From contig JACNFY010000019.1 of assembly GCA_014384375.1 (NCBI GenBank), positions 36,262 to 100,261 on the forward strand: a DNA stretch of 64,000 nucleotides, in the 5' to 3' direction. Below are positions 846 to 58,002 of this stretch, one piece after another. The translations under genes were made by a program, and so were the position numbers. The notes beneath the pieces are model-generated. The model was not told where the DNA came from, searched no databases, and worked only from the letters and a program-made list of their open reading frames with translations. The first letter of the stretch is position 1, and each line of letters starts with the position of its first letter. The DNA comes from Nanobdellati archaeon. Its GTDB lineage: Archaea > Nanobdellota > Nanobdellia > Woesearchaeales > GCA-2686295.

Positions 846-1487
846 TCAATAGTCCCAGCCAGATTCACCCACGAGAGGAACAAACCTGCAATCGAATAAG
901 AACGCTCTTTCAAAATCGCCTTTTTTCTTTGTGAAAACAAATAATTCTTGAAAAGCTCTGTCGCCGATAGGAACTACAATTCTTCCACCTTCATTCAATT
1001 GCTCTTGCAATTGTTCAGGTATCTTGTGGCATGCAGCGGTTATCAATATTCCATCATATGGAAACCCTTCCTTGAATCCCCCTTCTCCATTACCTTCAAC
1101 GACTTTTACATTGGTATAACCAAGCTTTTTCAGGATTTTTCTGCTTTTTTCTACTAACTTATGGATTAGCTCAACTGTGTAAACTTTTTTTGCGATCTCA
1201 GCGAGAATAGCGGCTTGATATCCCGAACCAGCCCCAACCTCTAATACCTTCTCATTCCCTTTGAGTCTTAGTGCTTCTGTCATCGCTGCAACAACGTATG
1301 GCTGACTTACTGTTTGACCATAACCAATGGGTACTGGAAAGTCACCATAAGCTCTCTCTTTATGTTCCTCAGGTACAAACTCGTGTCTTGGAACTTTTTT
1401 CATGACTTTTAGAACAAGCTCATCCTTTATACCCCTTCTTCTGAGCTGGTTCTCAACCATACTCTCTCTCAAGGGTTCATAATTCAT
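846..1487 (-). CDS. pcm: Protein-L-isoaspartate O-methyltransferase
   Basis: Contains GQTVSQPYVVAAMTEAL and the SAM-binding motif VLEVGAGSGYQAAILAE. The 213-aa length is typical of PIMT. Confidence 0.85.
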   Translation of the reverse strand: MNYEPLRESMVENQLRRRGIKDELVLKVMKKVPRHEFVPEEHKERAYGDFPVPIGYGQTVSQPYVVAAMTEALRLKGNEKVLEVGAGSGYQAAILAEIAKKVYTVELIHKLVEKSRKILKKLGYTNVKVVEGNGEGGFKEGFPYDGILITAACHKIPEQLQEQLNEGGRIVVPIGDRAFQELFVFTKKKGDFERAFLFDCRFVPLVGESGWDY

Positions 1488-2536
1488 TTTTTCAAATAAA
1501 CAGTTCTAGTTGGGAAAGCCATTTCTATCTTGGCTTTTTCAAACCTCTTCTTTATCTCCATGTTGATGTTGTGCTTTGCATTGAGAATATTATCGAGGTT
1601 CTTAATCCAATATATTACTAAAAAGTTTAATGAGCTGTCTCCGAACTCTTTGAAGCTAACAATTGATCTGTTCTCTGTATCTTTATTCTTTAAAACCACA
1701 TCTTCCAGTATTTTCTTTGCTTCTTCCATCTTTCTCATTGGTGTATCATATTCAACTCCTATAGTTGCTTTAACTTTTCTGGATTTTTCTCTTGAAACAT
1801 TTTGTAGTATAGTGTCTGCAATCTTGGCGTTTGGAACTATTAATTGGAATCCATCCAAGGTTTCCATCTTTGTTGTTCTAAGGCCTATTTCTCTTACCCA
1901 ACCATCATAATCCTCTATTTTTATTCTGTCGCCAAGCTTAAAGGGCTTGTCTGTTAGTATTGACATACCTCCAAAGAGGTTTGCAAGCATGTCTTTGGCA
2001 GCTAATGCAAATGCTAAGCCTCCTATTCCAAGTCCTGCTATTAATGAAGTAACGTCGTACCCGAAGTTGTCAATAATTATGATTACAGCTATTACTATTA
2101 GTGTTACTTTGACAAGTCTTCTCACAACTGGTAGAAGGGCATCATCAAGCTCTGATTTTGTTTTAGAAGCAAGTGGTGTTATATAGTGAATCAGTAATGC
2201 ATCCACAAAGTAGATGACAAACCAGAAGATATTTATTGTTAGGATTATCTGTACAATGTTAGAGAATATTTTACTAATTGATGGGCTTAGATTAAGCGTT
2301 TTCAAGGCGATTATAAAGCCAATTATGAATATCAAGAAGACAAGGGGTTTTTCCATTGCTTCAACTAATATATCATCAATCTTTGTTTTGGAAATTTCTG
2401 CTTTCTTTCTCAACACTCTTTTACTGATGTAAAAAACCGCTCTTCCAACTATGAGTGAGCCAACAATTATAGCGAAGAATATCAAATAGTCGAATATTGT
2501 ATTTCCAAAGTATACATTGTCTAATATAGGTATCAT
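1484..2536 (-). CDS. Small-conductance mechanosensitive channel (MscS family)
   Basis: Three N-terminal TM helices are followed by LANLFGGMSILTDKPFKLGDRIKIEDYDGWVREIGLRTTKMETLDGFQLIVPNAKI, the MscS pore helix and beta-domain signature. It overlaps pcm by 4 nt. Confidence 0.8.
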   Translation of the reverse strand: MIPILDNVYFGNTIFDYLIFFAIIVGSLIVGRAVFYISKRVLRKKAEISKTKIDDILVEAMEKPLVFLIFIIGFIIALKTLNLSPSISKIFSNIVQIILTINIFWFVIYFVDALLIHYITPLASKTKSELDDALLPVVRRLVKVTLIVIAVIIIIDNFGYDVTSLIAGLGIGGLAFALAAKDMLANLFGGMSILTDKPFKLGDRIKIEDYDGWVREIGLRTTKMETLDGFQLIVPNAKIADTILQNVSREKSRKVKATIGVEYDTPMRKMEEAKKILEDVVLKNKDTENRSIVSFKEFGDSSLNFLVIYWIKNLDNILNAKHNINMEIKKRFEKAKIEMAFPTRTVYLKK

Positions 2537-2577: not shown

Positions 2578-2880
2578 TTACCGGATGCAGCCTTCCATCC
2601 AAGAAAGATACTCTTTGTTTACTCTAGCGTTTAACTTTATGATTGCAGGAATATCATACGAGTGAAGCTCTCTAATAGCATTCTTGGCTTCCTCCTCCCA
2701 TCTTTCAAGAGTTTTAACTAATAGAATTGCCTCTGTCTCCTCCTTTAGTTCTCCTTCCCATTCATAAATTGATTCAGCAGGCACAATATTTGCACACGCT
2801 ATTAACTTTTGCTTTAAGAGCTCCTTAGCTATCTTCTTGGCTTCCTTCTTATCCTTGCATGGCACGTAGTATAGAATCAT
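2578..2880 (-). CDS. cutA: Divalent-cation tolerance protein CutA
   Basis: MILYYVPCKDKKEAKKIAKELLKQKLIACANIVPAESIYEWEGELKEETEAILLVKT matches the CutA1 fold signature. I set the start at the internal ATG (2880-2878), which overlaps the upstream gene's stop (ATGA). The longer track ORF (to 3033) would overlap that gene in another frame. Confidence 0.75.
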   Translation of the reverse strand: MILYYVPCKDKKEAKKIAKELLKQKLIACANIVPAESIYEWEGELKEETEAILLVKTLERWEEEAKNAIRELHSYDIPAIIKLNARVNKEYLSWMEGCIR

Positions 2881-3437
2881 TTTTTGATCTTTTTGTAAGC
2901 TACGAATATGACTAAAAGAATCTCTATTAGAATAATTATTGGTCTGAGTATTCTGTGCAAATCGCTGAAATATCGACCAGTTCCTACGAAGATCGCAATT
3001 AATCCACCTATAAGAAAACCGGTTAATATCCATTCTTTCAAAGAATCTTTCTTATAGGGGAGATATATACTTAGTATGACTGCTACTAATCCTAGAATGC
3101 TTGACATTATGAAGACAAAGAACTCATAATTTTCTCTAACTTCGTCGTATTCATTCATGCAAGTTTCACACTTAAACTCTTTAACGCATCCCTCTTCGTA
3201 GATGGGTGTGAACTCTCCTCCTTGCTCCTGACAAACTTCTGCTTCTGCATCATCCACTTCAATAGGTGTACAGTTTAGTTTCTCTTGTAAGTAAGGAGCT
3301 TTTTGCATGTAGAGTTCTCTTTTGCAAAAGTCATCGTATTCAGGTCTTTCATAAAATGCGTTTATAAGGCTGAAAATAAAAATCCCAAATAATATGGCAA
3401 TGGCTGCAATTATTCCGAATTTTTTTACATTAATCAT
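2877..3437 (-). CDS. Hypothetical membrane protein with a Cys-rich extracytoplasmic loop
   Basis: The ORF is 186 aa. An N-terminal TM helix is followed by an acidic segment of about 80 aa with 7 Cys (CKRE..CTP..CQEQ..CVKEFKCETC), then 3 predicted TM helices. It has 4-nt overlaps with both neighbours. Confidence 0.5.
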   Translation of the reverse strand: MINVKKFGIIAAIAILFGIFIFSLINAFYERPEYDDFCKRELYMQKAPYLQEKLNCTPIEVDDAEAEVCQEQGGEFTPIYEEGCVKEFKCETCMNEYDEVRENYEFFVFIMSSILGLVAVILSIYLPYKKDSLKEWILTGFLIGGLIAIFVGTGRYFSDLHRILRPIIILIEILLVIFVAYKKIKK

Positions 3438-4600
3438 TTTATATAGAGGCTCTTCTCGTATAGTTTAAATACTTTGTTCAAGTCTTTCTGCTCGACAACC
3501 CTTCTTAGTTCCATCCTAGCAGAGGCTTTGGCAAGTCTCATTATCCCAAGGATTAATCTCGGGCTGATCTCCACTAAGAAGTTCTTTTCATCTTTTTTCA
3601 GTTTCGCCGAGAAGTCGACTATCTGCTTTTTCAATTTTTCATCGAAAGCTACATCCACAAATTGCGAAAACTCAACATAATCTCTCAAAAACAAGGAATC
3701 ATTTATTTCAAGGTTTTTCTCTCTCTCACTAACTATCTTCTTGGCTATGTCTACAAATTCTTTTGTTCCAGGTCTCCTGACAAAGAAGACCAAATGGAAT
3801 CGTGATAGCAATGCAGGGTCGAATGGAATCTGTTTCATCCATGTGTCAGGCGTCCTTCCAACAAATTGATCTCCTTTTGGATTAGCAGTTGCTAGTAGGC
3901 TGATTCTAGCATCGAGTTTTATGTGTTTGCTACCTTTGTCATAGGTTATGAAACCCTTCTCCATTGCGTTGAGCAATGCGCCTCTGTCTCTTGGTCTCAT
4001 TAGGTTTAGCTCGTCCACACAACAGATTCCTTCGTCAGCCATTGTTAGAAGTCCTTTTATTAGTTGATCTCCTTTAAACGTAGCGGTTAGACCTGCAGCG
4101 CTCGTTCCTGAGCCAAGGCCGTAGGATGATATAGGCGCAATATCGTCAATGGCTCTTAGTATGTCTGTCTTTCCTGTGCTAGGATCTCCAAGGAGCAGTA
4201 CATGAACCTTGTCAGTTGAGAATAATTGCAAGATAGCTGCTTCTTTTACTTCGTCAAGCCCAACTATGTGTGGTGCTAGGAATTCTTTTATCCTCTGCTC
4301 AGCTACGAGAGAAAATTCCTCATACTTTTTTTCTCTGACTTTCTGTTCTATTATGTCATTCCAGACATTTGTAATATTAGTTAATCCTTCTTCTTCAATT
4401 CCAAGATTTATGATTGGGAACTGCTTGTCTTCTATTAGTTTTTCAGATACCTTCAGGGATGAATAAGCAACACCTATTTTTCCTAGTTTCAGAATTTTCT
4501 TGACTTTTTTGAAGTCGCTATGTTCAAGATATTCTCTTAATTGTTCTAAGTCTTTTCTCTTCTTTATAGACAAAGGTAAAAGTAGTTTTAGGAATGACAT
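3434..4600 (-). CDS. MCM-family AAA+ ATPase, short form (388 aa) lacking the canonical N-terminal OB/Zn domain
   Basis: Walker A LLLGDPSTGKTDIL and GSGTSAAGLTA are present. Walker B and the following segment read ICCVDELNLMRPRDRGALLNAMEKGFITYDKGSKHIKLDARISLLATANP, and the arginine-finger region reads LLSRFHLVFFV. These are collinear with the MCM AAA+ core. Only about 95 aa with no Cys precede the core. Confidence 0.7.
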   Translation of the reverse strand: MSFLKLLLPLSIKKRKDLEQLREYLEHSDFKKVKKILKLGKIGVAYSSLKVSEKLIEDKQFPIINLGIEEEGLTNITNVWNDIIEQKVREKKYEEFSLVAEQRIKEFLAPHIVGLDEVKEAAILQLFSTDKVHVLLLGDPSTGKTDILRAIDDIAPISSYGLGSGTSAAGLTATFKGDQLIKGLLTMADEGICCVDELNLMRPRDRGALLNAMEKGFITYDKGSKHIKLDARISLLATANPKGDQFVGRTPDTWMKQIPFDPALLSRFHLVFFVRRPGTKEFVDIAKKIVSEREKNLEINDSLFLRDYVEFSQFVDVAFDEKLKKQIVDFSAKLKKDEKNFLVEISPRLILGIMRLAKASARMELRRVVEQKDLNKVFKLYEKSLYIK

Positions 4601-4754
4601 GACCCCTCTTACATAAACGAATTCTTATAAGCATATAAAGTTTTCGGGATTTCAATGTTAATATACACTTTTCCTCCATTTTTCCAAAACCTTTTTATAT
4701 ACACAACCCTATACTGTTATGGGGGAATTAGTAAGAGTATATTAATTCTGGAAA

Positions 4755-5027
4755 ATGGACGACTTCGACTTTGACAGATTGATGGAAATCCAGAGGATGA
4801 CTGCCTCTCGTATAAGGCAGGAATCTGAGGTAGATAATAAAATAAAGATTCTAGATATATTGAATGAGTTGACAGCCACAAAGGGAAAAAAGATTCAAGT
4901 CGAGGAAGTAATTATAGAGGCAGGTACTCAGGGCCTTGCAGAGTCTGAGGTTACAGCTACATTGGATGCTCTGAAGGAGGATGGCATGGTCATTGAACCA
5001 GAGACAGGATTTGTGCAACTGGCTTAG
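4755..5027 (+). CDS. Small winged-helix protein resembling the MCM C-terminal WH domain
   Basis: The 90-aa ORF is divergent from the MCM-like gene. Its C-terminus ATLDALKEDGMVIEPETGFVQLA resembles the LKxxGxIxEPxxGxxxx ending of MCM C-terminal winged helices. This is pattern-level evidence only. Confidence 0.45.
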   Translation: MDDFDFDRLMEIQRMTASRIRQESEVDNKIKILDILNELTATKGKKIQVEEVIIEAGTQGLAESEVTATLDALKEDGMVIEPETGFVQLA

Positions 5028-7324
5028 TATCCAAACAATGTCTTCTGAGAACTATTTTTGACTATATCGTCAAAGTTTGTGTTGTAGAAACTTAGCACTG
5101 TATCTGCTAGTGGTTTTAGCTGCTTCTCGATGTAGTGGTCATAATCAATCCTGCTCTTGTGAAGCTCTATTGGTTCAGGACCATTTACTGTGATAACATA
5201 CTCAATGATATTGCTCTTCAATTCTTTCAACATCCGAGCAGCTTTCACATGTGGAGGTGTGGTTTTTATGTAAGCATTTAAGTTCTTTCTAATCGCTTTT
5301 CTATACACCAATAGCTTATTGTATTTTCCTTTCTTTAAGTCATTCACAAATTTCTTCACATACTCTGCGACTTCCTTCTTGTGAAATATCTTCTCTAAGA
5401 GCTCAAGTTGGAACTTCTTAGCCAGTTCTGTCCAATCACGTCTAACAAACTCCAAGCCGACAAAGTCCATCTTTTCCTTGCCATTCTTGACAATTAGCCC
5501 TGCGTATCTCTTTTTGCTGCCTTTTTCAGAGTCACGAATTTTAGGCATTAAGAATCGTTTGTATACTTTTTCGAACTCTAACTCTAAGAAGCTTGGGCAT
5601 CCATACTTTTTTTGTATGTGTTGTGTGAAGAATTCGTTGATTTGTTTTTGTATTTCTAAACCTGTCTTGTTAGCTTCTTTCTCGCTTTTCACATTTAAAT
5701 TTACAAATACGCTGTCAGTGTCACCATAGATAACTTCATAGCCCATTTCTCCAATATTTTTAGCGGTCTGCTTTATGAAGTGTTGAGCGAAATATGTTAT
5801 TGCATTTGCCATGTCGATGCTGTGAAATCTGAAAATAGGATTTGCCATCACTCCAAACATGGAATTCATGACGACCTTGATAGCATAACTGCCAGTTGCG
5901 TCTTTCTTCTTTTTGATAATGTCTCTCGCTTTCCACAAACGCTGAATCATGTCTGATAGGATGCCATGTTCTTTTCTGAAACAAGCACCATTTGGAGCTT
6001 TAATCAGATTTTTTCCTTTGCAGTCTGGAACATATGTGAATGGATCAATGTTGAAAGTTCTTATGATGCTTGGATACAGGCTTTTGAAGTCACATACAAT
6101 AACGTAATCATATATGCCTGGTTTTGAGCTCATTACATAGCCGCCTTTGATTCTTTCCTTACGTTCTCCAAACTTTGCAGAAGGAGCGACATAGCCTTTT
6201 TTTCTCAAATCTCTCAAATAGAGAGAGTCAAAAGCTGAGATGCTTCCTTTAACCCTGTCTAGTTGTATTCCTGTGAGCAAGGATCGTTGGATTGTTAGTC
6301 CAAGCACTCCTGTTTTCTCGATGATGCCTGTAACTAGTTTTGAATCTTTCAAGTTATAATCAACCAGCTTCTGAGGGTTTTTCTTGAAAGCTTCTTCAAT
6401 CTCAGCACCTTTATTCTTATAACCTATCAACTTTTTTTCTCTAAGAATTTCCTCAGCAGCTGTGTCTAACTTATAGTTTACTAATTTCACAAAAGATATT
6501 TTTAGCAAATGAATGCCATCGAGTACCATTCTTCCAGCAAAATTAGCTGTTGAATCCCTGAAGAATGATTCCTGTCTTTTTATGAAGCAAGTGTCATCAT
6601 TTCTTCCAAGCTGGAAAGGGATGTTGTACTGTTTGAACTTATCATGCAACTTGCTCAAGTCGAAGTCTATTACATTCCAGCCAGTTATTATGTCAGGGTC
6701 AAGCTCTAGTAATTTTTTCTTGAATTTCTCTAGTAATTTTTTTTCATTCTTTACACAGATAGCATTTTTTAGTTTTTTATCAGATATTATTATTGCCTTT
6801 GCAAAGTTATCTGAGAACATTGATATTGAGTATAACTCTTTTCCATACCTGTCTGTTTCAATGTCAATTGACAACATCTTTAATTTAGGCTTCCAATCAG
6901 CAGAACTCAGTTCCGGTTCCTCATAAATCCTGTTCACAAATTCCCCTTTCTTGAAATCACCTTTGGTTTCCATAGATCCTTTGATGTCTTTGTCCATCAT
7001 GAAGCGATAGGCAAATCTGATATCTGCTTCATAACATTCGATATCTTTTTCTTCGAACCTCTTCCTGAATTCAGGCACGTTTTTAGGGATATTAAGAATT
7101 ATTTTAACAACAGGTTCTTCTTTGAAATTTTTTAAATCAGTCTCTTCATACTCAAAAGTGTTAGTCTTCAAGGCTTTGTTCAAATCCTTTTTCTTTATGT
7201 AGAAATAAGGCCTATAATGGTTTATTGTCAGAAATGATTCTCCGTTCTCCAATCTCCCAAACAGGTAGACATAAGCCTTGTTATCAACCACACGATAAGT
7301 AGGGTAGACTACGAATCCTTTCAT
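5024..7324 (-). CDS. polB: DNA polymerase, family B
   Basis: Exo I LSIDIETD, Exo II GWNVIDFDLSKL and Exo III YNLKDSKL are present. Pol motif A is CDFKSLYPSII, motif B is KVVMNSMFGV and motif C is YGDTDSVFV. No intein-like insertion was seen. Confidence 0.95.
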   Translation of the reverse strand: MKGFVVYPTYRVVDNKAYVYLFGRLENGESFLTINHYRPYFYIKKKDLNKALKTNTFEYEETDLKNFKEEPVVKIILNIPKNVPEFRKRFEEKDIECYEADIRFAYRFMMDKDIKGSMETKGDFKKGEFVNRIYEEPELSSADWKPKLKMLSIDIETDRYGKELYSISMFSDNFAKAIIISDKKLKNAICVKNEKKLLEKFKKKLLELDPDIITGWNVIDFDLSKLHDKFKQYNIPFQLGRNDDTCFIKRQESFFRDSTANFAGRMVLDGIHLLKISFVKLVNYKLDTAAEEILREKKLIGYKNKGAEIEEAFKKNPQKLVDYNLKDSKLVTGIIEKTGVLGLTIQRSLLTGIQLDRVKGSISAFDSLYLRDLRKKGYVAPSAKFGERKERIKGGYVMSSKPGIYDYVIVCDFKSLYPSIIRTFNIDPFTYVPDCKGKNLIKAPNGACFRKEHGILSDMIQRLWKARDIIKKKKDATGSYAIKVVMNSMFGVMANPIFRFHSIDMANAITYFAQHFIKQTAKNIGEMGYEVIYGDTDSVFVNLNVKSEKEANKTGLEIQKQINEFFTQHIQKKYGCPSFLELEFEKVYKRFLMPKIRDSEKGSKKRYAGLIVKNGKEKMDFVGLEFVRRDWTELAKKFQLELLEKIFHKKEVAEYVKKFVNDLKKGKYNKLLVYRKAIRKNLNAYIKTTPPHVKAARMLKELKSNIIEYVITVNGPEPIELHKSRIDYDHYIEKQLKPLADTVLSFYNTNFDDIVKNSSQKTLFGY

Positions 7325-7343
7325 TGTTTACAAGAAGAGTCTA

Positions 7344-7357
7344 AGATATTTAAAGTT
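7344..7357 (-). promoter_or_regulatory. TATA-like box upstream of polB
   Basis: The sequence agatatttaaagtt lies about 22-30 nt upstream of the polB ATG (7324) on the reverse strand. This spacing is typical of archaeal TATA boxes with short or absent leaders. Confidence 0.35.
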
Positions 7358-7366
7358 AGTGATAGT

Positions 7367-7380
7367 TATATTTATAAAAT
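7367..7380 (+). promoter_or_regulatory. TATA-like box upstream of ABCE1
   Basis: The sequence ttatatttataaaat lies about 25-35 nt upstream of the ATG at 7402. Confidence 0.35.
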
Positions 7381-7401
7381 AACGAGTTAAACTAATTAAT
7401 T

Positions 7402-9165
7402 ATGCCTAAAAGAATAATGGTTGTGAAAAAAGAGAAATGCAACCCTCAAGGTTGCGGTGGCTACCTTTGTATTAGAGTCAGCCCTAGTAATCGAGCAGGA
7501 AAAGATGCTATTGTAAAATCTCCTGATGGTAAGGTAATGGTTAATGAGGAAGTTATAACAGATGGTGATAGGATAGCTGCAAACAAGTGTCCATTCAATG
7601 CTTTGGAAATGGTCAATCTGCCTGAAGAACTTGACAAAGACCCTATACATCGCTACGGCAAGAATGGTTTTTCACTCTACAACTTGCCAACACCGATGTT
7701 TGGAAAGGTGGTTGGCATTGTTGGAAAAAACGGCATTGGTAAATCAACAGCTCTCAAGATACTTGCAGATGTTCTAAAGCCGAATCTTGGAAAGGTTGAA
7801 AAGGAGAATTATGAAGCTAGTCATGAAGAATTAATAGATTATTTCAAAGGAACTGAAGCTCAGGTTTTTTTTGAGAAGAGAAAAAAAAGTGAAATAAAAG
7901 TTGCTTACAAGCCACAACAAGTAGATTTGATTCCAAAACAGTTTTCAGGAACAGTGAAAGAACTGCTTGAGAAAACAGATGAGAAAAAAGCTATAGATGA
8001 AATTGCAGAAAAACTAGAGCTTACAAAAATAATAGATCGTAAAATAGGAGATATCTCAGGTGGTGAATTGCAAAGAGTGGCAATAGCAGCCACTGTTTTG
8101 AAAAAAGCAAATGTTTATTTCTTCGACGAGCCCACATCATACCTTGATATAAAGCAGCGATTAAAAATTTCAAAGTTCATAAGAAAGTTAGCTGATGAAA
8201 ACACCGCGGTTCTAGTTGTTGAGCACGACTTAATAATATTGGATTACATGACTGACTTCGTGCATTTGATGTATGGAAAGGAGGGGGCTTTTGGGGTTGT
8301 CTCCATGATAAAAACCACAAAGGCAGGGATAAATGTTTACCTTTCAGGATATTTGAAGGAAGAAAACATCAGATTTCGTGACCATAAAATAAAGTTTATG
8401 AAGAAACCTCCTGTTAAGAAAAAATCTGAGCATAAATTGGTTGACTGGGATGAATTAATGCATAAACAAGGAACATTCACCTTACAAGTAAACAAAGGAA
8501 CTCTCTACAGGACTGAAACAGTTGGAATCCTTGGAGAAAATGGTATTGGAAAAACAACTTTTGTTAGAATATTAGCAGGTGATATAAAAACAAAGGATAA
8601 GATAGAAAAATTAAAAGTAGCCTATAAGCCACAGTACCTGGAAGCAACTGATGAATTAGTTGCAGTTGTGTTGAAGAGAGCTGTTGATAAGCATAGCACA
8701 ACAATAATTAACTCTTTGAATCTGAAAGATTTAATGACTAGAAAATTATCAGAGCTTAGTGGTGGAGAGCTTCAGAGAGTTACGATTGCAAAATGCTTGG
8801 TAGAGGAGTCAAACATTATTTTGATGGACGAACCATCAGCTTATCTAGATGTTGAGCAGAGACTTGAAGTTTCGAAAGTTATAAGAAACATTATGGAACA
8901 CACTGGAAGATCTGCTTTGATAGTTGACCACGATTTATTGTTTGTTGATTATCTATCCGATGGACTACTAGTTTTTGATGGAGAATCTGCAATCAAAGGA
9001 ATTACTAATGGTCCGTTTGAGATGGAAGAAGGCATGAACATGTTCTTGAAAGACTTGGAGTTAACCTTTAGAAGAGATGAAGAGAATAATAGGCCTCGCG
9101 CCAATAAGGTTGGCTCACAGTTAGACAGAGAGCAGAAAGCCAAAGGTAAGCTTTATTATGTATAA
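7402..9165 (+). CDS. ABCE1 / RNase L inhibitor (ribosome recycling ATPase) with a degenerate N-terminal Fe-S domain
   Basis: There are two ABC cassettes, with Walker A GIVGKNGIGKST and GILGENGIGKTT and signatures ISGGELQRV and LSGGELQRV. The N-terminal ferredoxin-like domain reads KCNPQGCGGYLCIRVSP...NKCPFNALEMVNLP. Confidence 0.9.
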   Translation: MPKRIMVVKKEKCNPQGCGGYLCIRVSPSNRAGKDAIVKSPDGKVMVNEEVITDGDRIAANKCPFNALEMVNLPEELDKDPIHRYGKNGFSLYNLPTPMFGKVVGIVGKNGIGKSTALKILADVLKPNLGKVEKENYEASHEELIDYFKGTEAQVFFEKRKKSEIKVAYKPQQVDLIPKQFSGTVKELLEKTDEKKAIDEIAEKLELTKIIDRKIGDISGGELQRVAIAATVLKKANVYFFDEPTSYLDIKQRLKISKFIRKLADENTAVLVVEHDLIILDYMTDFVHLMYGKEGAFGVVSMIKTTKAGINVYLSGYLKEENIRFRDHKIKFMKKPPVKKKSEHKLVDWDELMHKQGTFTLQVNKGTLYRTETVGILGENGIGKTTFVRILAGDIKTKDKIEKLKVAYKPQYLEATDELVAVVLKRAVDKHSTTIINSLNLKDLMTRKLSELSGGELQRVTIAKCLVEESNIILMDEPSAYLDVEQRLEVSKVIRNIMEHTGRSALIVDHDLLFVDYLSDGLLVFDGESAIKGITNGPFEMEEGMNMFLKDLELTFRRDEENNRPRANKVGSQLDREQKAKGKLYYV

Positions 9166-53598: not shown

Positions 53599-53735
53599 CT
53601 TTTAGAGGACTATCTAAGAAAAAGTCGGGTCTATCCCCAAAAACAATCACTTTTTATGTTCATGAGGAGAAGAGAGTTTTTTTCTTATATAAATCTTTCT
53701 CTAAATGGCAAAAATTTTTCGGATTTAATTACGCA

Positions 53736-53749
53736 AAATATTTAAATAG
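53736..53749 (+). promoter_or_regulatory. TATA-like box, with an AAGGAGGT RBS (53777-53784), upstream of the three-gene cassette
   Basis: The sequence aaatatttaaatag lies about 45 nt upstream of the ATG at 53791. A strong Shine-Dalgarno AAGGAGGT lies 6 nt before that ATG. Confidence 0.35.
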
Positions 53750-53790
53750 AAATATCTAACTTATATTAACTGCTTAAAGGAGGTAGCCAT

Positions 53791-54246
53791 ATGAATTCTT
53801 TAGCTTTAGGAGGTGTTTTGAAGCGAATATATGAACATTTTGACATGCAATCTTTTTCAAATAGGTTGAGGGTTCAGAAGGTAATATACCTTTTACAAGG
53901 TGTAGGTATTAATTTAGGATATTCCTACTCTTGGTACATCTATGGGCCTTATTCTACTGGATTAACAAGAGATGCATTTCAGATTACTAATTTTAAAAAT
54001 GTTAAACCAATTGGATTTGTTGAACCAAGCACAGAGAAGAAATTTCAGGAGTTCACTAAAAAAATTAAACAAAAAAATGATTTTTGGTTAGAAGTTGCTA
54101 GTTCAATACATTTTTTGAAAGAGTTATACCCAAATAAAACAAAGTCAAGCATAATCAATGAGATTCAAAATAAAAGAACTAAGTTTAACAATAAGAAAGA
54201 TAAAATACTTCAAGTTTGGGAAGATATAGAGGGTTGGATTATATGA
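53791..54246 (+). CDS. Panacea/SocA-like (DUF4065-type) domain protein, putative antitoxin component
   Basis: RLRVQKVIYLLQGVGINLGYSYSWYIYGPYSTGLTRD resembles the KLQKLLYxAQ...WxxGPVxxxLY core of DUF4065/GepA/SocA proteins. Pattern-level evidence only. Confidence 0.45.
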   Translation: MNSLALGGVLKRIYEHFDMQSFSNRLRVQKVIYLLQGVGINLGYSYSWYIYGPYSTGLTRDAFQITNFKNVKPIGFVEPSTEKKFQEFTKKIKQKNDFWLEVASSIHFLKELYPNKTKSSIINEIQNKRTKFNNKKDKILQVWEDIEGWII

Positions 54247-54455
54247 GAAACCTTAAAATAATTTTTGATCCTAGAACAGACGCAAATAAAATTAATGAGA
54301 AAGTTGTTCAATTAAAAGATGAAGAAAAGATAGAGTCTCCTGTTGGGGCCTTATTCTCGATGTTAGGTGATTCTCTGGAAAAAAAGGAAAAGGTTTACAA
54401 AACTAAGAAATCTATAAAATCTAGGAAAGAGATTCCAAAATTACAGTTTCTTTAA
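54243..54455 (+). CDS. Hypothetical 70-aa protein (acidic centre, K/R-rich tail), middle gene of the cassette
   Basis: I set the start at the ATG 54243-54245, which overlaps the upstream stop TGA 54244-54246. The track ORF begins 27 nt earlier inside the upstream gene. No recognisable motif. Confidence 0.4.
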   Translation: MRNLKIIFDPRTDANKINEKVVQLKDEEKIESPVGALFSMLGDSLEKKEKVYKTKKSIKSRKEIPKLQFL

Positions 54456-54458
54456 AAA

Positions 54459-54848
54459 ATGCCTCAGTTAAACCAGAGAGAAATCAAAATAACCAAGTGT
54501 GATACGAATGGTAAACTTGCCAAAATAGGTTGTCCTCATCACTTTTATATAATTCTTTCTATGAATAAATACAATCAAATAGCTAGTGAATTGTTGGGCG
54601 TTCCATTAACCTCGAAAATAAATGATTTCACTCTTAATTATGGGCTAGATATAACAAATGATGATATAGAAGGAGATTTTGCTCTTGATAAACAAACTTT
54701 TATACTTTGTGACCGTCCTTGTCGAATTAGTAAATCTGACCTTGGAACTATGAAAACTGACGGGTCAAGGATAAGTAAAGAATTATTCACGAGAATTGTT
54801 GATAATATTTCACATTTTATTAGATATGGCAAGAGATTAGGAGCCTAA
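54459..54848 (+). CDS. Divergent MazF/PemK-like toxin-fold protein
   Basis: HHFYIILSMNKYNQIASELLGVPLTSK, FILCDRPCRISKSDL and ISKELFTRIVDNISHFI are collinear with E. coli MazF segments RPAVVLSPFMYNNKTGMCLCVPCTTQ, ALADQVKSIAWRAR and APEELQLIKAKINVLI. It starts 3 nt after the upstream stop. Confidence 0.55.
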   Translation: MPQLNQREIKITKCDTNGKLAKIGCPHHFYIILSMNKYNQIASELLGVPLTSKINDFTLNYGLDITNDDIEGDFALDKQTFILCDRPCRISKSDLGTMKTDGSRISKELFTRIVDNISHFIRYGKRLGA

Positions 54849-54897
54849 TTAGATACTTCTCTTTATTACTTAGTTTTACGTTTCTAAAAATAAGAAG

Positions 54898-54913
54898 AAT
54901 AAATTTAAATATT
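54898..54913 (+). promoter_or_regulatory. TATA-like box upstream of the RM gene
   Basis: The sequence aataaatttaaatatt lies about 22-37 nt upstream of the ATG at 54935. Confidence 0.3.
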
Positions 54914-54934
54914 AATCCTTAATAATTAATTCTT

Positions 54935-57556
54935 ATGGGGGACAAAGAGGCTGCCAAACAGCAGATTCAGCTACTTATTGACAAGTATGAGAAAGTTAAA
55001 TCTGAAGGGAAGATTAAAAGTTATAATGAAGAACGAACAAAGCAAGAGTTCATACGTCCCTTATTTGAAGCTTTAGGTTGGGATTTTACTGAAGATGTTT
55101 TACCAGAAGACAAGGCTTCAAGAGGAAGAGTTGATTATTCTTTTAGAATTAATGAATTTCCTAAATTCTTTTTAGAAGCAAAAAAACTATCTGCAGATTT
55201 AGAAGATCAACAATGGGCAGAACAAGTAATAAATTATGCTTGGCATAGAGGAATAACCTGGGCTATTTTAACTGATTTTGAAGGATTAAAAATATTTAAT
55301 GCTGAATGGAAATCAGGAAATATATGGCAAAATCAATTAGGACCTACAATCAAGTATCATCAGTATATCTCTAGATTTGATGAACTCTGGTGTCTTTCAA
55401 GAAAGAGTATGAAAAAAAGGGAATTAGATATTTACGCTGAAAAACACTATAAAAAAATAAAAAAGTCACCTGTAGGAAAGCAAATTCTTATTGATTTAAT
55501 GCATTGGAGAGATATTTTATCTAGTAATATAACTCTAAAAAATCAAGGAAAAATTTTAAGTGAAGAGGATTTAGATGAAGCTGTTCAGAGAATTCTGGAT
55601 AGACTCATATTTATACGTTTCTGTGAAGATAAAGAGTTAGAAGAAAAAATACTTCAAACACACTTAAGAGACTGGCGAGACCATCAGAAAAAGCACTTTG
55701 TTATTATTTTAAGAGACATTTTTGAATATTTTAATGAAGTATATAACGGTAAGTTATTCCGTCCTCATCTTTGTGACGATTTAATGATCGATGATGAAAT
55801 ACTAGAAGAAATAATAGGAGGGCTTCATCATACAAAAGACAGAAATATTTTCTATAATTTTGCGGATATAGAAGCTGATGTTCTTGGGAATATGTACGAG
55901 CAATATTTGGGACACATATTGAAAAAAACTGTTAAGAAAGCTAAAATAAAGAAAGTAAAAAGTCACAGAAAAGAGCACGGTATTTATTTTACACCAACTT
56001 ATATTGTAGATTATATTGTTAAAAATACTTTAGGAGAGCTATTAAAGGATAAGAAAGTTAATGCAGAAAAAATTAAAGTTTTAGACCCTGCTTGTGGCTC
56101 AGGCTCTTTCTTAATAAAAGTATTTGATTATTTAGAAAAACACTTTAAAGAAAAAGCAAGTGTTCAGCAAGAATTAGAATTTGCAAGAAAAACTAAAATA
56201 TTAACAAATAATATTTTTGGAGTTGATCTAGATCCTAAAGCTGTCGAAATAGCACAACTTAATCTTTTATTAAAAACTACTGAAAAGAAACATAGACTTC
56301 CAGATATTGAAGAAAACATTAGAGAAGGAAACAGCTTGATTGATGATTCTCAAATAGCAGGAAATAAAGCTTTCAAATGGGAAGAAAAATTCAAAGAAAT
56401 AATGAATGAAGGAGGTTTTGATGTTGTTATTGGGAATCCACCTTACTTCAATATTAAACAGGATGACATATTGAAAAAAGCTAAAGATTTCTCATTATTG
56501 TTATCAGGTGTTCTTAATGCGGCAACGCTCTTTCTAAAAAAAGGAATTGATTTATTAAAAAATGGTGGTTTTTTGGGTTTTATTATTCCCAAATCTTTCT
56601 TAATAGTTGACTCGTGGTATCCTATAAGAAAAATAATCTTGGAAAACTATAACATAAAGAGTGTGTATGATGTTGGAATCGCTTTTGAAGAAGTTGGGCT
56701 TGAACAAGTAATAATAATTCTTCAAAAAGATAAAAGTTCTAAAAACAATATAAATATAATTAGAGAAGGAGAACAAATTAACATAATTCCACAAAATTTC
56801 TTTGAAAAAAAAAGGGTAATACTTACTTCATTAGATAAAGAAAAATATCCTCTGATTTTGAAAATGGAAATGAATTCTACAAAACTAAGTGAGTTTAGTG
56901 ATATGCCAAGAGGTCTTACAGTTAAGTCTTCTGAATACATATTAGCACCTTCTAGTGATATTGTACAAGTTCTTGGTGGAACAAATGTTGAAAGATACAG
57001 AAAGAAAGAGGGAAGTAAAAGAAAACCAAACAGATATTTAGATAAACAGAACCAAAAAATCTTACAAAAGAAATTTATTTTTGAAAAAGAAAGACTCATT
57101 TATCAAAATATTGCTTCAAGTGTACCAAGAATAGTTGCAACAATAGAAAATAAAAAATTACCAACAGACGATACTTTAAATAACTTGACATGTCAAAAAT
57201 CTGATTTATCGATTAAATATATTTTAGCTATATTAAATTCTAAATTAACCACTTTCTATCTCAGATATGCAATAATAAATTGTTCCGTTCTTACAGTTCA
57301 TCTTGATAAACCATATCTAGGCAAGGTTCCTATTAAAATTATTCCAAAATCGCAGCAAGAATTAATAAGTAGTTTTGTTGACAAGATGCTCTCGCTTAAC
57401 AAACGCTTTAACGAACTTGGCGACAAACAAACAGATGAAAGAGCAAAGATAGAAGAACAAATTAAAAAAACAGATGAAGAAATTGACAGATTAGTTTACA
57501 AGATTTATGGAATAACTAAAGAGGAGCAGAGGATTATTGAGGAGAGTTTGAAATGA
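54935..57556 (+). CDS. Type IIG (Eco57I/TaqI-like) single-chain restriction endonuclease / N6-adenine DNA methyltransferase
   Basis: An N-terminal PD-(D/E)xK-like nuclease motif reads RVDYSF...FFLEAKK. Methyltransferase motif I is VLDPACGSGSFL and motif IV is VVIGNPPYF. A C-terminal region of about 350 aa has the length and position of a target-recognition domain. Confidence 0.85.
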   Translation: MGDKEAAKQQIQLLIDKYEKVKSEGKIKSYNEERTKQEFIRPLFEALGWDFTEDVLPEDKASRGRVDYSFRINEFPKFFLEAKKLSADLEDQQWAEQVINYAWHRGITWAILTDFEGLKIFNAEWKSGNIWQNQLGPTIKYHQYISRFDELWCLSRKSMKKRELDIYAEKHYKKIKKSPVGKQILIDLMHWRDILSSNITLKNQGKILSEEDLDEAVQRILDRLIFIRFCEDKELEEKILQTHLRDWRDHQKKHFVIILRDIFEYFNEVYNGKLFRPHLCDDLMIDDEILEEIIGGLHHTKDRNIFYNFADIEADVLGNMYEQYLGHILKKTVKKAKIKKVKSHRKEHGIYFTPTYIVDYIVKNTLGELLKDKKVNAEKIKVLDPACGSGSFLIKVFDYLEKHFKEKASVQQELEFARKTKILTNNIFGVDLDPKAVEIAQLNLLLKTTEKKHRLPDIEENIREGNSLIDDSQIAGNKAFKWEEKFKEIMNEGGFDVVIGNPPYFNIKQDDILKKAKDFSLLLSGVLNAATLFLKKGIDLLKNGGFLGFIIPKSFLIVDSWYPIRKIILENYNIKSVYDVGIAFEEVGLEQVIIILQKDKSSKNNINIIREGEQINIIPQNFFEKKRVILTSLDKEKYPLILKMEMNSTKLSEFSDMPRGLTVKSSEYILAPSSDIVQVLGGTNVERYRKKEGSKRKPNRYLDKQNQKILQKKFIFEKERLIYQNIASSVPRIVATIENKKLPTDDTLNNLTCQKSDLSIKYILAILNSKLTTFYLRYAIINCSVLTVHLDKPYLGKVPIKIIPKSQQELISSFVDKMLSLNKRFNELGDKQTDERAKIEEQIKKTDEEIDRLVYKIYGITKEEQRIIEESLK

Positions 57557-57702
57557 AATTATAAAAAACAGAATTTCTAATGTTATCATTGGTATTTTGT
57601 GCTTCAGATTCTAACTACGGATGGTAGCAAAGCCCTTAAATGCCAAAAGGCTTATATATAATAAAACCAATATACTTAATAAAATTTATTATGAGGTAAA
57701 AA

Positions 57703-57909
57703 ATGAATTTTATCAATATTATGCAAAGATGGTCTTTTGAAGTTTTGGGTTTGTTGTTAATAATTATACCTGGAATAATTTTGTTAAGGAATGTCTTGGG
57801 CGGAAATACAAGCAATTGGAGTGTTTATGTAATTTTAATTGCTTTTGGAGGATTATTGTCTGGATTTAAATCTATTTATAATAATATTATGCGTTACTTT
57901 GGAAGATAA
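57703..57909 (+). CDS. Small membrane protein (68 aa)
   Basis: Two predicted TM helices. GAGGTAAAAA precedes the ATG. Confidence 0.35.
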   Translation: MNFINIMQRWSFEVLGLLLIIIPGIILLRNVLGGNTSNWSVYVILIAFGGLLSGFKSIYNNIMRYFGR

Positions 57910-58002
57910 AGAATATTTTGTTCTTATTCTAGACAAATAAATTTCCTCTTAAATCAAAACTTTTATAAACAAAATATTAATATCTTTGGTCAGGTGGTAA
58001 TT

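Follow-up and report, generated by a model that had tools for sequence, protein, structure and literature searches.

A stretch of 64,000 nucleotides (nt) from a Nanobdellati archaeon of the order Woesearchaeales, hereafter the window (G000:C18:36262-100261), encodes side by side a 388-amino acid (aa) protein reduced to the motor part of MCM, which we call mini-MCM, and a 90-aa protein, WH90, homologous to the C-terminal winged helix (WH) region of MCM. The evidence makes it likely that the locus brings together two separate gene families of one DPANN order, i.e. an accessory mini-MCM and a free WH90 tied to the DNA polymerase PolB. This concerns their identity, the accessory status of the mini-MCM and their genomic associations; the mechanism that we propose for the two proteins is, taken alone, a tentative one that may well need replacing. 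The assembly is 1.27 Mb long, 95% complete and ~36% GC, and represents a DPANN-type archaeal genome. An earlier reading of this DNA by a model, made from the letters and their open reading frames (ORF) and referred to below as the original prediction, had described a divergent pair consisting of a 388-aa ORF, a 154-nt gap and a 90-aa ORF on the opposite strand, followed by PolB, and the ORF positions agree. The mini-MCM gene (3434..4600, − strand) and the WH90 gene (4755..5027, + strand) flank a spacer (4601..4754) with two promoters that resemble a transcription factor B recognition element and TATA box (BRE/TATA-like). The gene encoding the 766-aa PolB, identified by Pfam, lies at 5024..7324 (− strand) and is convergent with WH90, their stop codons sharing 4 nt.

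The mini-MCM is an MCM motor behind a family-specific N-terminal domain

The mini-MCM consists of an N-terminal domain, an MCM AAA+ module and an AAA lid. Pfam identifies the MCM P-loop PF00493 in residues 102-291 (3728..4297, − strand; E-value 8.4e-43, 146.5 bits for a gathering cut-off of 23.3) and the MCM lid PF17855 in residues 304-385 (3446..3691, − strand; 1.4e-11, 45.1 bits for a cut-off of 27.4). The NCBIfam MCM model NF040949, which has 682 positions, aligns at positions 230-592 alone with 169.6 bits, and the mini-MCM falls below the curated equivalog cut-off of 940 bits. The viral MCM profile PHROG 10371 matches at 3.3e-50, and Mg-chelatase and MoxR-type ATPases turn up as weak secondary matches. 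The nearest solved structures are those of Sso MCM (3F9V/4FDG, E about 5e-34), and when the AlphaFold2 (AF2) model, with a predicted local distance difference test score (pLDDT) of 91.5, was compared with the PDB using Foldseek, the top 50 matches were MCM chains throughout. The mini-MCM shares 35% identity over 302 residues with the MCM of its own genome, in an alignment that ends at residue ~584 of the latter; the protein stops right after the lid. An MCM reduced to its AAA+ core, as the original prediction had it, is therefore what we find: P-loop and lid are present, and the OB/zinc N-terminal domain and a WH in cis are absent. The family has >700 database members, about 385-400 aa long.

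The motifs needed for ATP hydrolysis are all present. In the protein of the window these are the Walker A motif GDPSTGKT (family-wide pattern GDPxTGKT), the Walker B residues DE196/197, sensor-1 N240, the SRF arginine finger with R267, and sensor-2 P347-R348. As assessed in an alignment of 63 family members, K144, G177, D196, E197, K222, N240, R267, and R348 are invariant (63/63), and neither the GDPxTGKT pattern nor P347 of sensor-2 varies. The PS1 (pre-sensor-1) hairpin (residues 217-230, with AF2 strands 217-222 and 225-230) is as long as in Sso MCM and carries the invariant K222, and position 228, the equivalent of K430 in Sso MCM, is K, Q or R (K/R in 35/63 members). The original prediction had recognized Walker A, Walker B and the SRF finger correctly, but had taken the NAMEKGxITxxKG block for the helix-2 insert (h2i). 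This block is the PS1 hairpin region after Walker B, whereas the real h2i lies between Walker A and Walker B. It is a short hairpin (residues ~173-182, AF2 strands 173-176 and 179-182) with the invariant G177 and with mostly basic residues at positions 176 and 182 across the family, and Sso MCM and the genome's own MCM each have 6 residues more in this insert. Before Walker A, the segment of the external hairpin is gone, which leaves a gap of 12 residues relative to the genome's own MCM and 11 relative to Sso MCM.

The first ~95 residues (4316..4600, − strand), delimited using AF2 secondary structure and hhalign, are a family-specific basic α/β domain. The AF2 model has helices at 12-21 and 27-38, strands at 42-47 and 61-66, and then a long helix at 71-96. 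Residues 1-95 contain 0 Cys, as had been pointed out in the original prediction, and across the 63 members the domain is likewise free of Cys, with a median isoelectric point (pI) of 9.4 and the near-invariant residues P9, K38, P62, and N81. A relic of the MCM N-terminal domain was considered for residues 1-95 and rejected: hhalign against 19 Woesearchaeal full-length MCMs gave zero confidence before residue ~97, and there was no match in this part to Pfam, NCBIfam or PHROGs.

A canonical MCM is present beside the mini-MCM

The genome encodes a canonical MCM of 672 aa on another contig (G000:C20:1565-3571), with 744 bits over model positions 5-681. It is the sole MCM_OB match in the whole genome. 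A full-length MCM elsewhere in the genome, for which the original prediction had advised looking, is thus found on contig C20. Among 41 relatives that were scanned, each of the 32 that are at least 90% complete has an MCM-family match (32/32), and those listed include full-length, intein-bearing or split canonical MCM. MCM_OB is found in an MCM-sized or intein-extended frame in 62/64 other mini-MCM-positive genomes; the two carriers without an MCM_OB match are 91-93% complete metagenome-assembled genomes whose congeners are positive. Because a canonical MCM coexists with the mini-MCM here and an MCM_OB match is present in 62/64 other carriers, the mini-MCM is an accessory MCM paralogue, and the canonical MCM remains the replicative helicase. 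This overturns one of the two alternatives in the original prediction, namely that the replicative helicase of the lineage is split or minimal.

The canonical MCM genes themselves vary in structure. In one relative (G038, 100% complete in 3 contigs), the canonical MCM at C1:372045-374041 consists of two same-strand ORFs ~10 nt apart, encoding 355 aa (model positions 11-350) and 333 aa (355-681), which is either a natural split or a frameshift. In G013 and G018 the N- and C-terminal halves of MCM are on separate contigs. In G019, G025, G029, G031, G231, G245, and others, the canonical MCM lies in frames of 1100-1700 aa with an interrupted match, which would fit one or more inteins inside the AAA+ domain, and in the protein P0282 an intein splicing domain lies beside the MCM P-loop.

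WH90 is an MCM-type C-terminal winged helix encoded by its own gene

Resemblance of the 90-aa protein to the C-terminal WH of MCM had been noticed from its sequence in the original prediction, and two MCM profiles, BLASTP and hhalign all place it at the MCM C terminus. WH90 matches positions 614-680 of NF040949 (E 3.2e-7) and positions 614-679 of the viral MCM PHROG 10371 (E 3.3e-6), and shares 36% identity with residues 614-669 of the genome's own MCM (BLASTP E 2e-8). When the WH90 family was aligned with Woesearchaeal full-length MCMs using hhalign, the match (96.9% probability, E 1.3e-10) extended from residue ~594 to the last residue of MCM. The best scores are against Woesearchaeal cellular MCM WHs (20-37 bits), with viral/plasmid MCMs reaching at most 26 bits. 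A Pfam scan of the WH90 of the window gave no match at E<=0.01, and one family member has a precomputed match to PF21120, the archaeal MCM winged helix.

The AF2 model of WH90 (pLDDT 89) has a long helix (residues 3-43) followed by a winged helix composed of helices 49-58 and 63-75 and a β wing. Foldseek, a check proposed in the original prediction, returned WH domains, i.e. the Rpa2 WH, cullin WHB, MthMCM (2MA3), and the Mcm4/7 WH, with E about 1e-2. Because the fold is generic and these E-values are modest, the assignment rests on the sequence matches. WH90 is strongly acidic (pI 4.4, net charge -8), as is its family (median pI 4.4, median charge -6), and this acidity argues for protein binding over DNA binding.

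To determine the extent of the family, 1.84 billion representative proteins were searched with its profile. The family comprises ~110 clusters at 50% identity, mostly of 85-95 aa, with a stand-alone ORF in every member. The next ranks are a few short or multi-WH proteins, and then the C termini of proteins of 689-1214 aa. WH90 is therefore an MCM-type C-terminal WH encoded separately, in an independent acidic family of ~90 aa. Among the multi-WH proteins, P0260, P0266 (452 aa), P0257, P0259, and P0273 (152-163 aa) have 2-5 tandem MCM-type WHs and no ATPase domain; they carry PF21120, MCM_C, and RPA_C-like domains and are another, uncharacterized use of the MCM WH module.

A fused mini-MCM-WH ancestor was sought among the longer proteins and discarded, as the longer mini-MCM members are N-terminal start-codon extensions, the 452-aa and 416-aa matches are multi-WH proteins, and a 541-aa match of the WH90 profile search, similar in rank to the 689-1214-aa proteins, is an intein-bearing MCM fragment.

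The conserved genomic partner of WH90 is PolB

In all 11 genomes of the family to which the window belongs, the mini-MCM and WH90 genes form a divergent pair, with PolB behind WH90. A stand-alone WH90 gene is found more widely, in about 60/301 genomes of the order, in many families, and 40 loci outside the family of the window were used to count its neighbours. PolB is at most 3.7 kb downstream of WH90 in 30/40 of these loci, convergent in 29, and in about 12 no more than 50 nt separate the stop codons. The mini-MCM adjoins WH90 in 1/40 (G421). ABCE1, the gene beyond PolB, is within range in only 11/40, which suggests that the adjacency of WH90 and PolB outlasts general synteny. Viewed from the mini-MCM, the picture is the same: in distant clades WH90 is absent beside it, in L005-L010 and L015 and in 69/80 genome loci. 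In a sample of 401 genomes of the phylum, 28 have both genes, 41 mini-MCM only, and 37 WH90 only. WH90 is thus present in 65 of the 401, all in the same order, and 37/65 lack the mini-MCM; the odds ratio for co-occurrence is 5.4, not corrected for phylogeny. The conserved genomic partner of WH90 is PolB, not the mini-MCM. The PolB of the window is the only family-B polymerase in the genome, which also has PolD, with the DP2 gene next to the main Orc1/Cdc6 gene on contig C23.

These counts bear on the view that WH90 is the detached WH of this very mini-MCM. A separate, true MCM-type WH does exist, as the original prediction had proposed, but its tie to the mini-MCM is at best local, considering the 37 WH90 genomes without mini-MCM and the conserved neighbour PolB. 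In the strongest form of this view, mini-MCM and WH90 in the family of the window would be the halves of an N-terminally truncated MCM, produced by fission and inversion between lid and WH and acting as one complex, in which the WH would act in trans on the ring ATPase and regulate it in the manner of the cis WH of canonical archaeal MCM. The two proteins have complementary ends, since the mini-MCM reaches residue ~584 of the genome's own MCM and WH90 starts at ~594 and continues to the last MCM residue. They are divergent neighbours with conserved back-to-back promoters in 11/11 family genomes, and divergent neighbours also in G421; both are restricted to one and the same order and are found together above expectation; and their charges are opposite, WH90 being acidic and the mini-MCM basic. 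In Sso MCM, the WH modulates ATPase and helicase activity (PMC4357721). On the other hand, 41/69 mini-MCM genomes have no WH90, outside the family PolB is by far the more frequent neighbour, and no fused mini-MCM-WH was found among the longer proteins described above. Moreover, WH90 is closest to Woesearchaeal cellular MCM WHs, whereas the mini-MCM AAA+ core has no such affinity, and domain boundaries are natural break points, which makes the complementary ends weak evidence. We therefore consider a split gene an unlikely explanation, although one to be taken seriously within the family of the window; there it might hold at most, and it cannot be a general rule.

Several WH90-PolB loci depart from the arrangement in the window. 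In sister genus g2 of the same family (L012:7781-10129 and L025:3099-5534), a gene of ~2.4 kb encoding 782-811 aa lies between WH90 and PolB and breaks the tail-to-tail overlap seen in the window. At L103 (G046:C15), ~2635-4977, the PolB by WH90 is two ORFs of 432 aa and 367 aa, both matching the PolB of the window. At L113 and L115, the greedy gene call gives only a PolB ORF of 431-434 aa, although the tblastn spans reach the locus end. Some lineages may thus have a split or frameshifted PolB.

Mini-MCM neighbourhoods differ between clades

Downstream of the mini-MCM, the window has a gene for a Cys-rich membrane protein of 186 aa (2877..3437, − strand), the start of which lies in an ATGA overlapping the mini-MCM stop by 4 nt, as stated in the original prediction. 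No Pfam or PADLOC match was found for this membrane protein. It is followed by CutA (100 aa, 2578..2880, − strand) and by a mechanosensitive channel of the MscS type, identified by Pfam (1484..2536, − strand). The longest-ORF call for CutA (2578-3033, 151 aa) is spurious, as it runs 157 nt into the membrane-protein gene. PF03091 matches residues 54-147 of this 151-aa ORF at 5.6e-30, and moving the start to the ATG at 2880 yields a 100-aa product and an ATGA overlap with the membrane-protein gene; CutA orthologues, which are 100-103 aa long, support this start.

Neighbourhoods were compared in 80 loci kept from the 198 mini-MCM-encoding GTDB species genomes. The order mini-MCM, (membrane protein), CutA, MscS is specific to the family of the window, and CutA is downstream in most of its loci. 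The original prediction had seen an odd operon here, and the coupled genes are indeed present; as a general context the arrangement fails, because other clades have different downstream genes. The membrane protein is present at L012, L014, L016, L017, and L024 and absent at L011, L013, L020, and L025, and is a variable passenger, not a core partner. MscS is downstream of the mini-MCM in 17/80 loci, some of which are outside the family. The GTPase gene oapA (= ArvA) follows the mini-MCM on the same strand in 16/80 loci, and oapB is found in 11 and oapC in 13. ArvA drives the formation of extracellular vesicles in Haloferax, and its operon was first named for its position beside the replication origin (PMC10927574). 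In ~15/80 loci there is a divergent upstream pair composed of a helix-turn-helix (HTH)-like gene and a second gene. In these loci (L035:1737-2962 and about 14 others), which are from other families, the product of the first gene has 186 aa and a weak UPF0175-like HTH, that of the second has 233 aa and no Pfam match, and the two resemble a toxin-antitoxin pair. A HerA-like gene is found in 12/80 loci and a putative Mre11-like gene in 8/80, ~2 kb or more upstream of the mini-MCM; both were named from their sequences. Outside the family of the window, the genes around the mini-MCM are for replication, repair or housekeeping.

Some of these neighbours, together with the losses in the motor, invite a reading in which the mini-MCM is not a DNA motor, but an MCM-derived AAA+ ATPase for the remodelling of proteins or ribonucleoproteins, or one with a role alongside the ArvABC (OapABC) vesiculation GTPase module or membrane proteins. 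The external hairpin is lost and h2i shortened, the equivalent of Sso K430 is K/R in just 35/63 members, and there are the weak matches to Mg-chelatase and MoxR-type ATPases. In addition, oapA/arvA, oapB, and oapC directly follow the mini-MCM on the same strand in 16/80 loci, and here the mini-MCM is coupled translationally to a membrane protein, then CutA and MscS. Against this, the PS1 hairpin has canonical length and an invariant K222, the h2i hairpin is kept with its invariant G177 and mostly basic flanks, the best structural matches are exclusively replicative MCMs, and the other recurrent neighbours are DNA enzymes (PolB, HerA, and Mre11). Furthermore, the membrane protein is not conserved, and in the genome of the window oapABC is on contig C1, not beside the mini-MCM. 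A function away from DNA is, in our view, improbable.

The spacer carries conserved promoter-like motifs

Blocks of the 154-nt spacer are nearly invariant over the 11 family genomes, the proteins of which are only 63-80% identical, and conservation of the spacer far exceeds that of the genes on either side. A BRE/TATA-like box is predicted at ~4632-4651 for the mini-MCM, about 35 nt before its ATG, and another at ~4680-4702 for WH90, about 55 nt before its ATG. The cGAAAAcTTTATAT motif was found again at other genome sites, and we therefore read it as a general promoter-like consensus, not as a regulon signal; a specific regulon motif in the spacer was discarded accordingly. Judging from this conserved promoter arrangement, co-expression of mini-MCM and WH90 in the family of the window is plausible.

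WH90 might alternatively be a transcription factor, i.e. a winged-helix regulator of the divergent promoter and/or of polB, its likeness to the MCM WH being mere ancestry. Its fold resembles CAP/MarR-type regulators according to Foldseek, and its gene adjoins a strongly conserved spacer. However, WH90 and its family are acidic, and archaeal MCM WHs are truncated and lack two typical wings (PMC4357721). The conserved blocks of the spacer are a motif that recurs in the genome, and in most genomes WH90 adjoins the 3' end of polB rather than the polB promoter. This makes a transcription factor very unlikely.

The mini-MCM is vertically conserved within one order

The mini-MCM was found in 198 GTDB species genomes, on contigs of up to 1.8 Mb. 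Most of the 80 kept loci have record titles naming Woesearchaeota or Nanoarchaeota; the rest are labelled otherwise, chiefly "uncultured Methanosarcinales", which we take as mislabels. In the 401 genomes of the phylum, the mini-MCM is present in 69, always as a single copy; 67 of these belong to the order of the window, 2 more to its class, and 0 lie beyond. It is vertically conserved within this one order and syntenic within genus and family.

In a tree of the AAA+ core (IQ-TREE, 304 columns, LG+G4), the mini-MCM clade is monophyletic with an ultrafast bootstrap (UFBoot) of 100 and a long stem, and it includes the divergent form of G039. It lies outside the tight clade of Woesearchaeal cellular MCMs (UFBoot 100), and recent duplication of the host MCM as its source is excluded. 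The clade is placed beside the long-branch MCMs of pMETVU02, pTN3, and TPV1 with UFBoot 78, a weakly supported position that is prone to long-branch attraction.

Extra copies of archaeal MCM often come from mobile elements. A Thermococcus example has been described (PMC3239210), and the original prediction had given a paralogue of the plasmid/virus type as one of two alternatives. Such a remnant, left over or domesticated from the replication helicase of a plasmid or virus, would fit the UFBoot 78 placement and the match to the viral MCM PHROG 10371. However, a scan of IMG/VR revealed no viral contig encoding the family, and tblastn against phages and plasmids found no close homologue, only distant MCMs with 24-34% identity. 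Identity to mobile-element MCMs is thus at most 34%, vs 35% to the host MCM. The ten phage/plasmid MCMs that were fetched are all full-length, with 608-886 aa in the longest open frame. BFVD contains nothing nearer to the mini-MCM than the cellular MCMs of the PDB, and PADLOC gave no defence-system match. In the window, the flanks of the mini-MCM are housekeeping genes with uniform GC and there is no integrase among the identified flanking genes, nor were mobile-element hallmarks seen among the recurrent neighbour families. Considering also its single copy, its synteny in genus and family and its vertical conservation within one order, we reject the mini-MCM as mobile-element cargo, and a remnant of this origin is highly improbable.

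That the mini-MCM, with or without WH90, is a minimal helicase that replicates the DNA of the lineage has next to no chance of being right: it is located near PolB here and N-terminally truncated Sso MCM keeps helicase activity in vitro, but canonical MCM is present in its own genome and MCM_OB was found in almost all other carriers, about three quarters of the sampled genera of the order have no mini-MCM, and the cellular MCMs are conserved and short-branched in the tree.

Discussion

The picture that we favour, an accessory mini-MCM and a free WH90 tied to PolB, can be extended to a mechanism, with the qualification given at the outset. Judging from its motifs, the mini-MCM probably assembles into a ring ATPase, likely hexameric, which would hydrolyse ATP at subunit interfaces, because neither sensor-2 nor the arginine finger, which MCM subunits supply in trans to one another, varies in the family. 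The retained PS1 hairpin and the short h2i hairpin probably carry it along DNA. The absence of collar, external hairpin, and part of the h2i points to reduced processivity or to translocation on double-stranded DNA, rather than fork unwinding after loading at origins. The mini-MCM would then probably serve not at origins but as an auxiliary motor for repair or restart linked to replication, a role that would fit the PolB and herA/mre11 neighbourhoods and, by analogy, the parallel with MCM8/9. WH90 most likely works in trans as an adaptor between proteins or as a regulator, in contact with PolB and/or MCM-type rings, because it is acidic and derived from a domain that modulates the ATPase and helicase of MCM in cis (PMC4357721). 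In the family of the window, it is probably co-expressed with the mini-MCM. A more far-reaching and doubtful idea is that WH90 physically couples PolB to MCM-type rings, to the cellular MCM in most lineages and to the mini-MCM in the family of the window, where mini-MCM, WH90 and PolB would make up a compact auxiliary helicase-polymerase machine for restart or repair synthesis in reduced DPANN genomes. If true, an MCM motor and a WH would be naturally spread over separate genes, and archaea, in which such links are poorly understood, would have a factor that couples helicase and polymerase.

Several observations weigh against this picture. Mini-MCM neighbourhoods are heterogeneous (CutA/MscS, oapABC, the HTH pair, and herA-mre11) and none is conserved order-wide. 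WH90 and PolB are convergent and hence not co-transcribed, their adjacency could be partly inherited synteny, and most PolB-bearing genomes of the order have no WH90. The h2i is needed for unwinding in archaeal MCM, and with its short h2i and missing external hairpin the mini-MCM could be no helicase at all. Finally, its place in the tree beside the mobile-element MCMs makes an ancient mobile-element origin of the family possible.

How the mini-MCM relates to known MCMs can be stated in detail. Like canonical archaeal MCM (Sso MCM 3F9V/4FDG/6MII, and the 672-aa MCM of its own genome), it has PF00493 and PF17855, all ATPase motifs and the PS1 hairpin. Unlike them, it has no N-terminal helical, zinc, and OB domains and no cis WH, its external hairpin is gone and its h2i is shorter; it has instead a basic ~95-aa N-terminal domain of its own, and it occurs in a minority of genera. 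BcMCM from a Bacillus cereus prophage also combines an MCM AAA+ core with a foreign N terminus and is a 3'-5' helicase (PMC2715239), but it is prophage-borne and bacterial and has a large primase-like zinc-binding N terminus, whereas the mini-MCM is encoded on an archaeal chromosome and its N-terminal domain is small and Cys-free. Similarly to the MCMs of pTN3, TPV1, HFTV1, and Methanocaldococcus plasmids, and to MCM1/2 of T. kodakarensis (PMC3239210), the mini-MCM is an extra copy beside an essential MCM, on a long branch; the plasmid/virus MCMs that were fetched differ in having N-terminal regions and a C-terminal WH and in residing on mobile elements. The likeness to MCM8/9 is a functional analogy only. 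These are MCM-family motors beside the replicative helicase that are used in recombination and repair, and they keep the N-terminal OB domain, which the mini-MCM does not; there is no specific sequence relationship.

WH90 aligns with the archaeal MCM WH over the whole post-lid region, with a root mean square deviation (rmsd) of 1.1 Å over 60 columns to 2MA3, and differs from it in being a 90-aa gene of its own, in an N-terminal helix 8 residues longer, in its net charge (-8, vs -1 for the C terminus of the genome's own MCM), and in its tie to PolB. Its best Foldseek matches are the Rpa2 WH of Pyrococcus abyssi bound to PolD and primase (9F26, 9F2A, and 9F29; TM 0.62-0.67, rmsd 1.6-1.7 Å). This offers a precedent for a small WH docking onto replicative polymerases, and by analogy the partner of WH90 would be PolB. 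The likeness to Rpa2, with E about 6e-3, is one of generic WH fold, and the sequence homology of WH90 points to the MCM WH, not to RPA.

MCM AAA+ cores with foreign N termini (BcMCM) and extra MCM copies on mobile elements were already known. A full-text literature search found no description of a chromosomal, order-wide MCM of ~390 aa with its own N-terminal domain, nor of a stand-alone MCM-WH family tied to PolB, and both families appear undescribed. What is new here is the canonical MCM shown beside the mini-MCM almost everywhere, WH90 as an independent family, and the association of WH90 with PolB. Archaea and eukaryotes have MCM as their core replicative helicase, and its N-terminal collar, external hairpin, and WH are regarded as integral. 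Here, in about 200 species-level genomes, an MCM motor without any of the three is kept by clear purifying selection. It shows which parts of the motor can stand alone and, with 388 aa, provides a compact model protein. A free acidic MCM-type WH beside PolB across many families is a testable lead on how polymerase and MCM helicase communicate in archaea. Current annotations of these genes vary between "AAA family ATPase", "hypothetical protein", and "DNA replicative helicase MCM", and they should not be counted as a replicative MCM in surveys of DPANN replisomes.

Candidate origin regions

On contig C1 of the genome, within G000:C1:886-7556, ~4 kb separate oapA/arvA, oapB, and oapC (6144-7556, − strand) from a divergent second paralogue of Orc1/Cdc6 (886-1941, 187 bits). 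The main Orc1/Cdc6 (437 bits) is on contig C23 beside PolD DP2, and both the C1 and the C23 region are candidate origin regions. In the window, cumulative GC skew is minimal near 52-54 kb and rises after, and gene orientation turns from − to + at ~53.7 kb. GC falls to 0.28-0.30 across 54-58 kb, where there is an 873-aa ORF (54935-57556). The region 53600-58000 could be a replication origin or terminus, or reflect mere strand bias.

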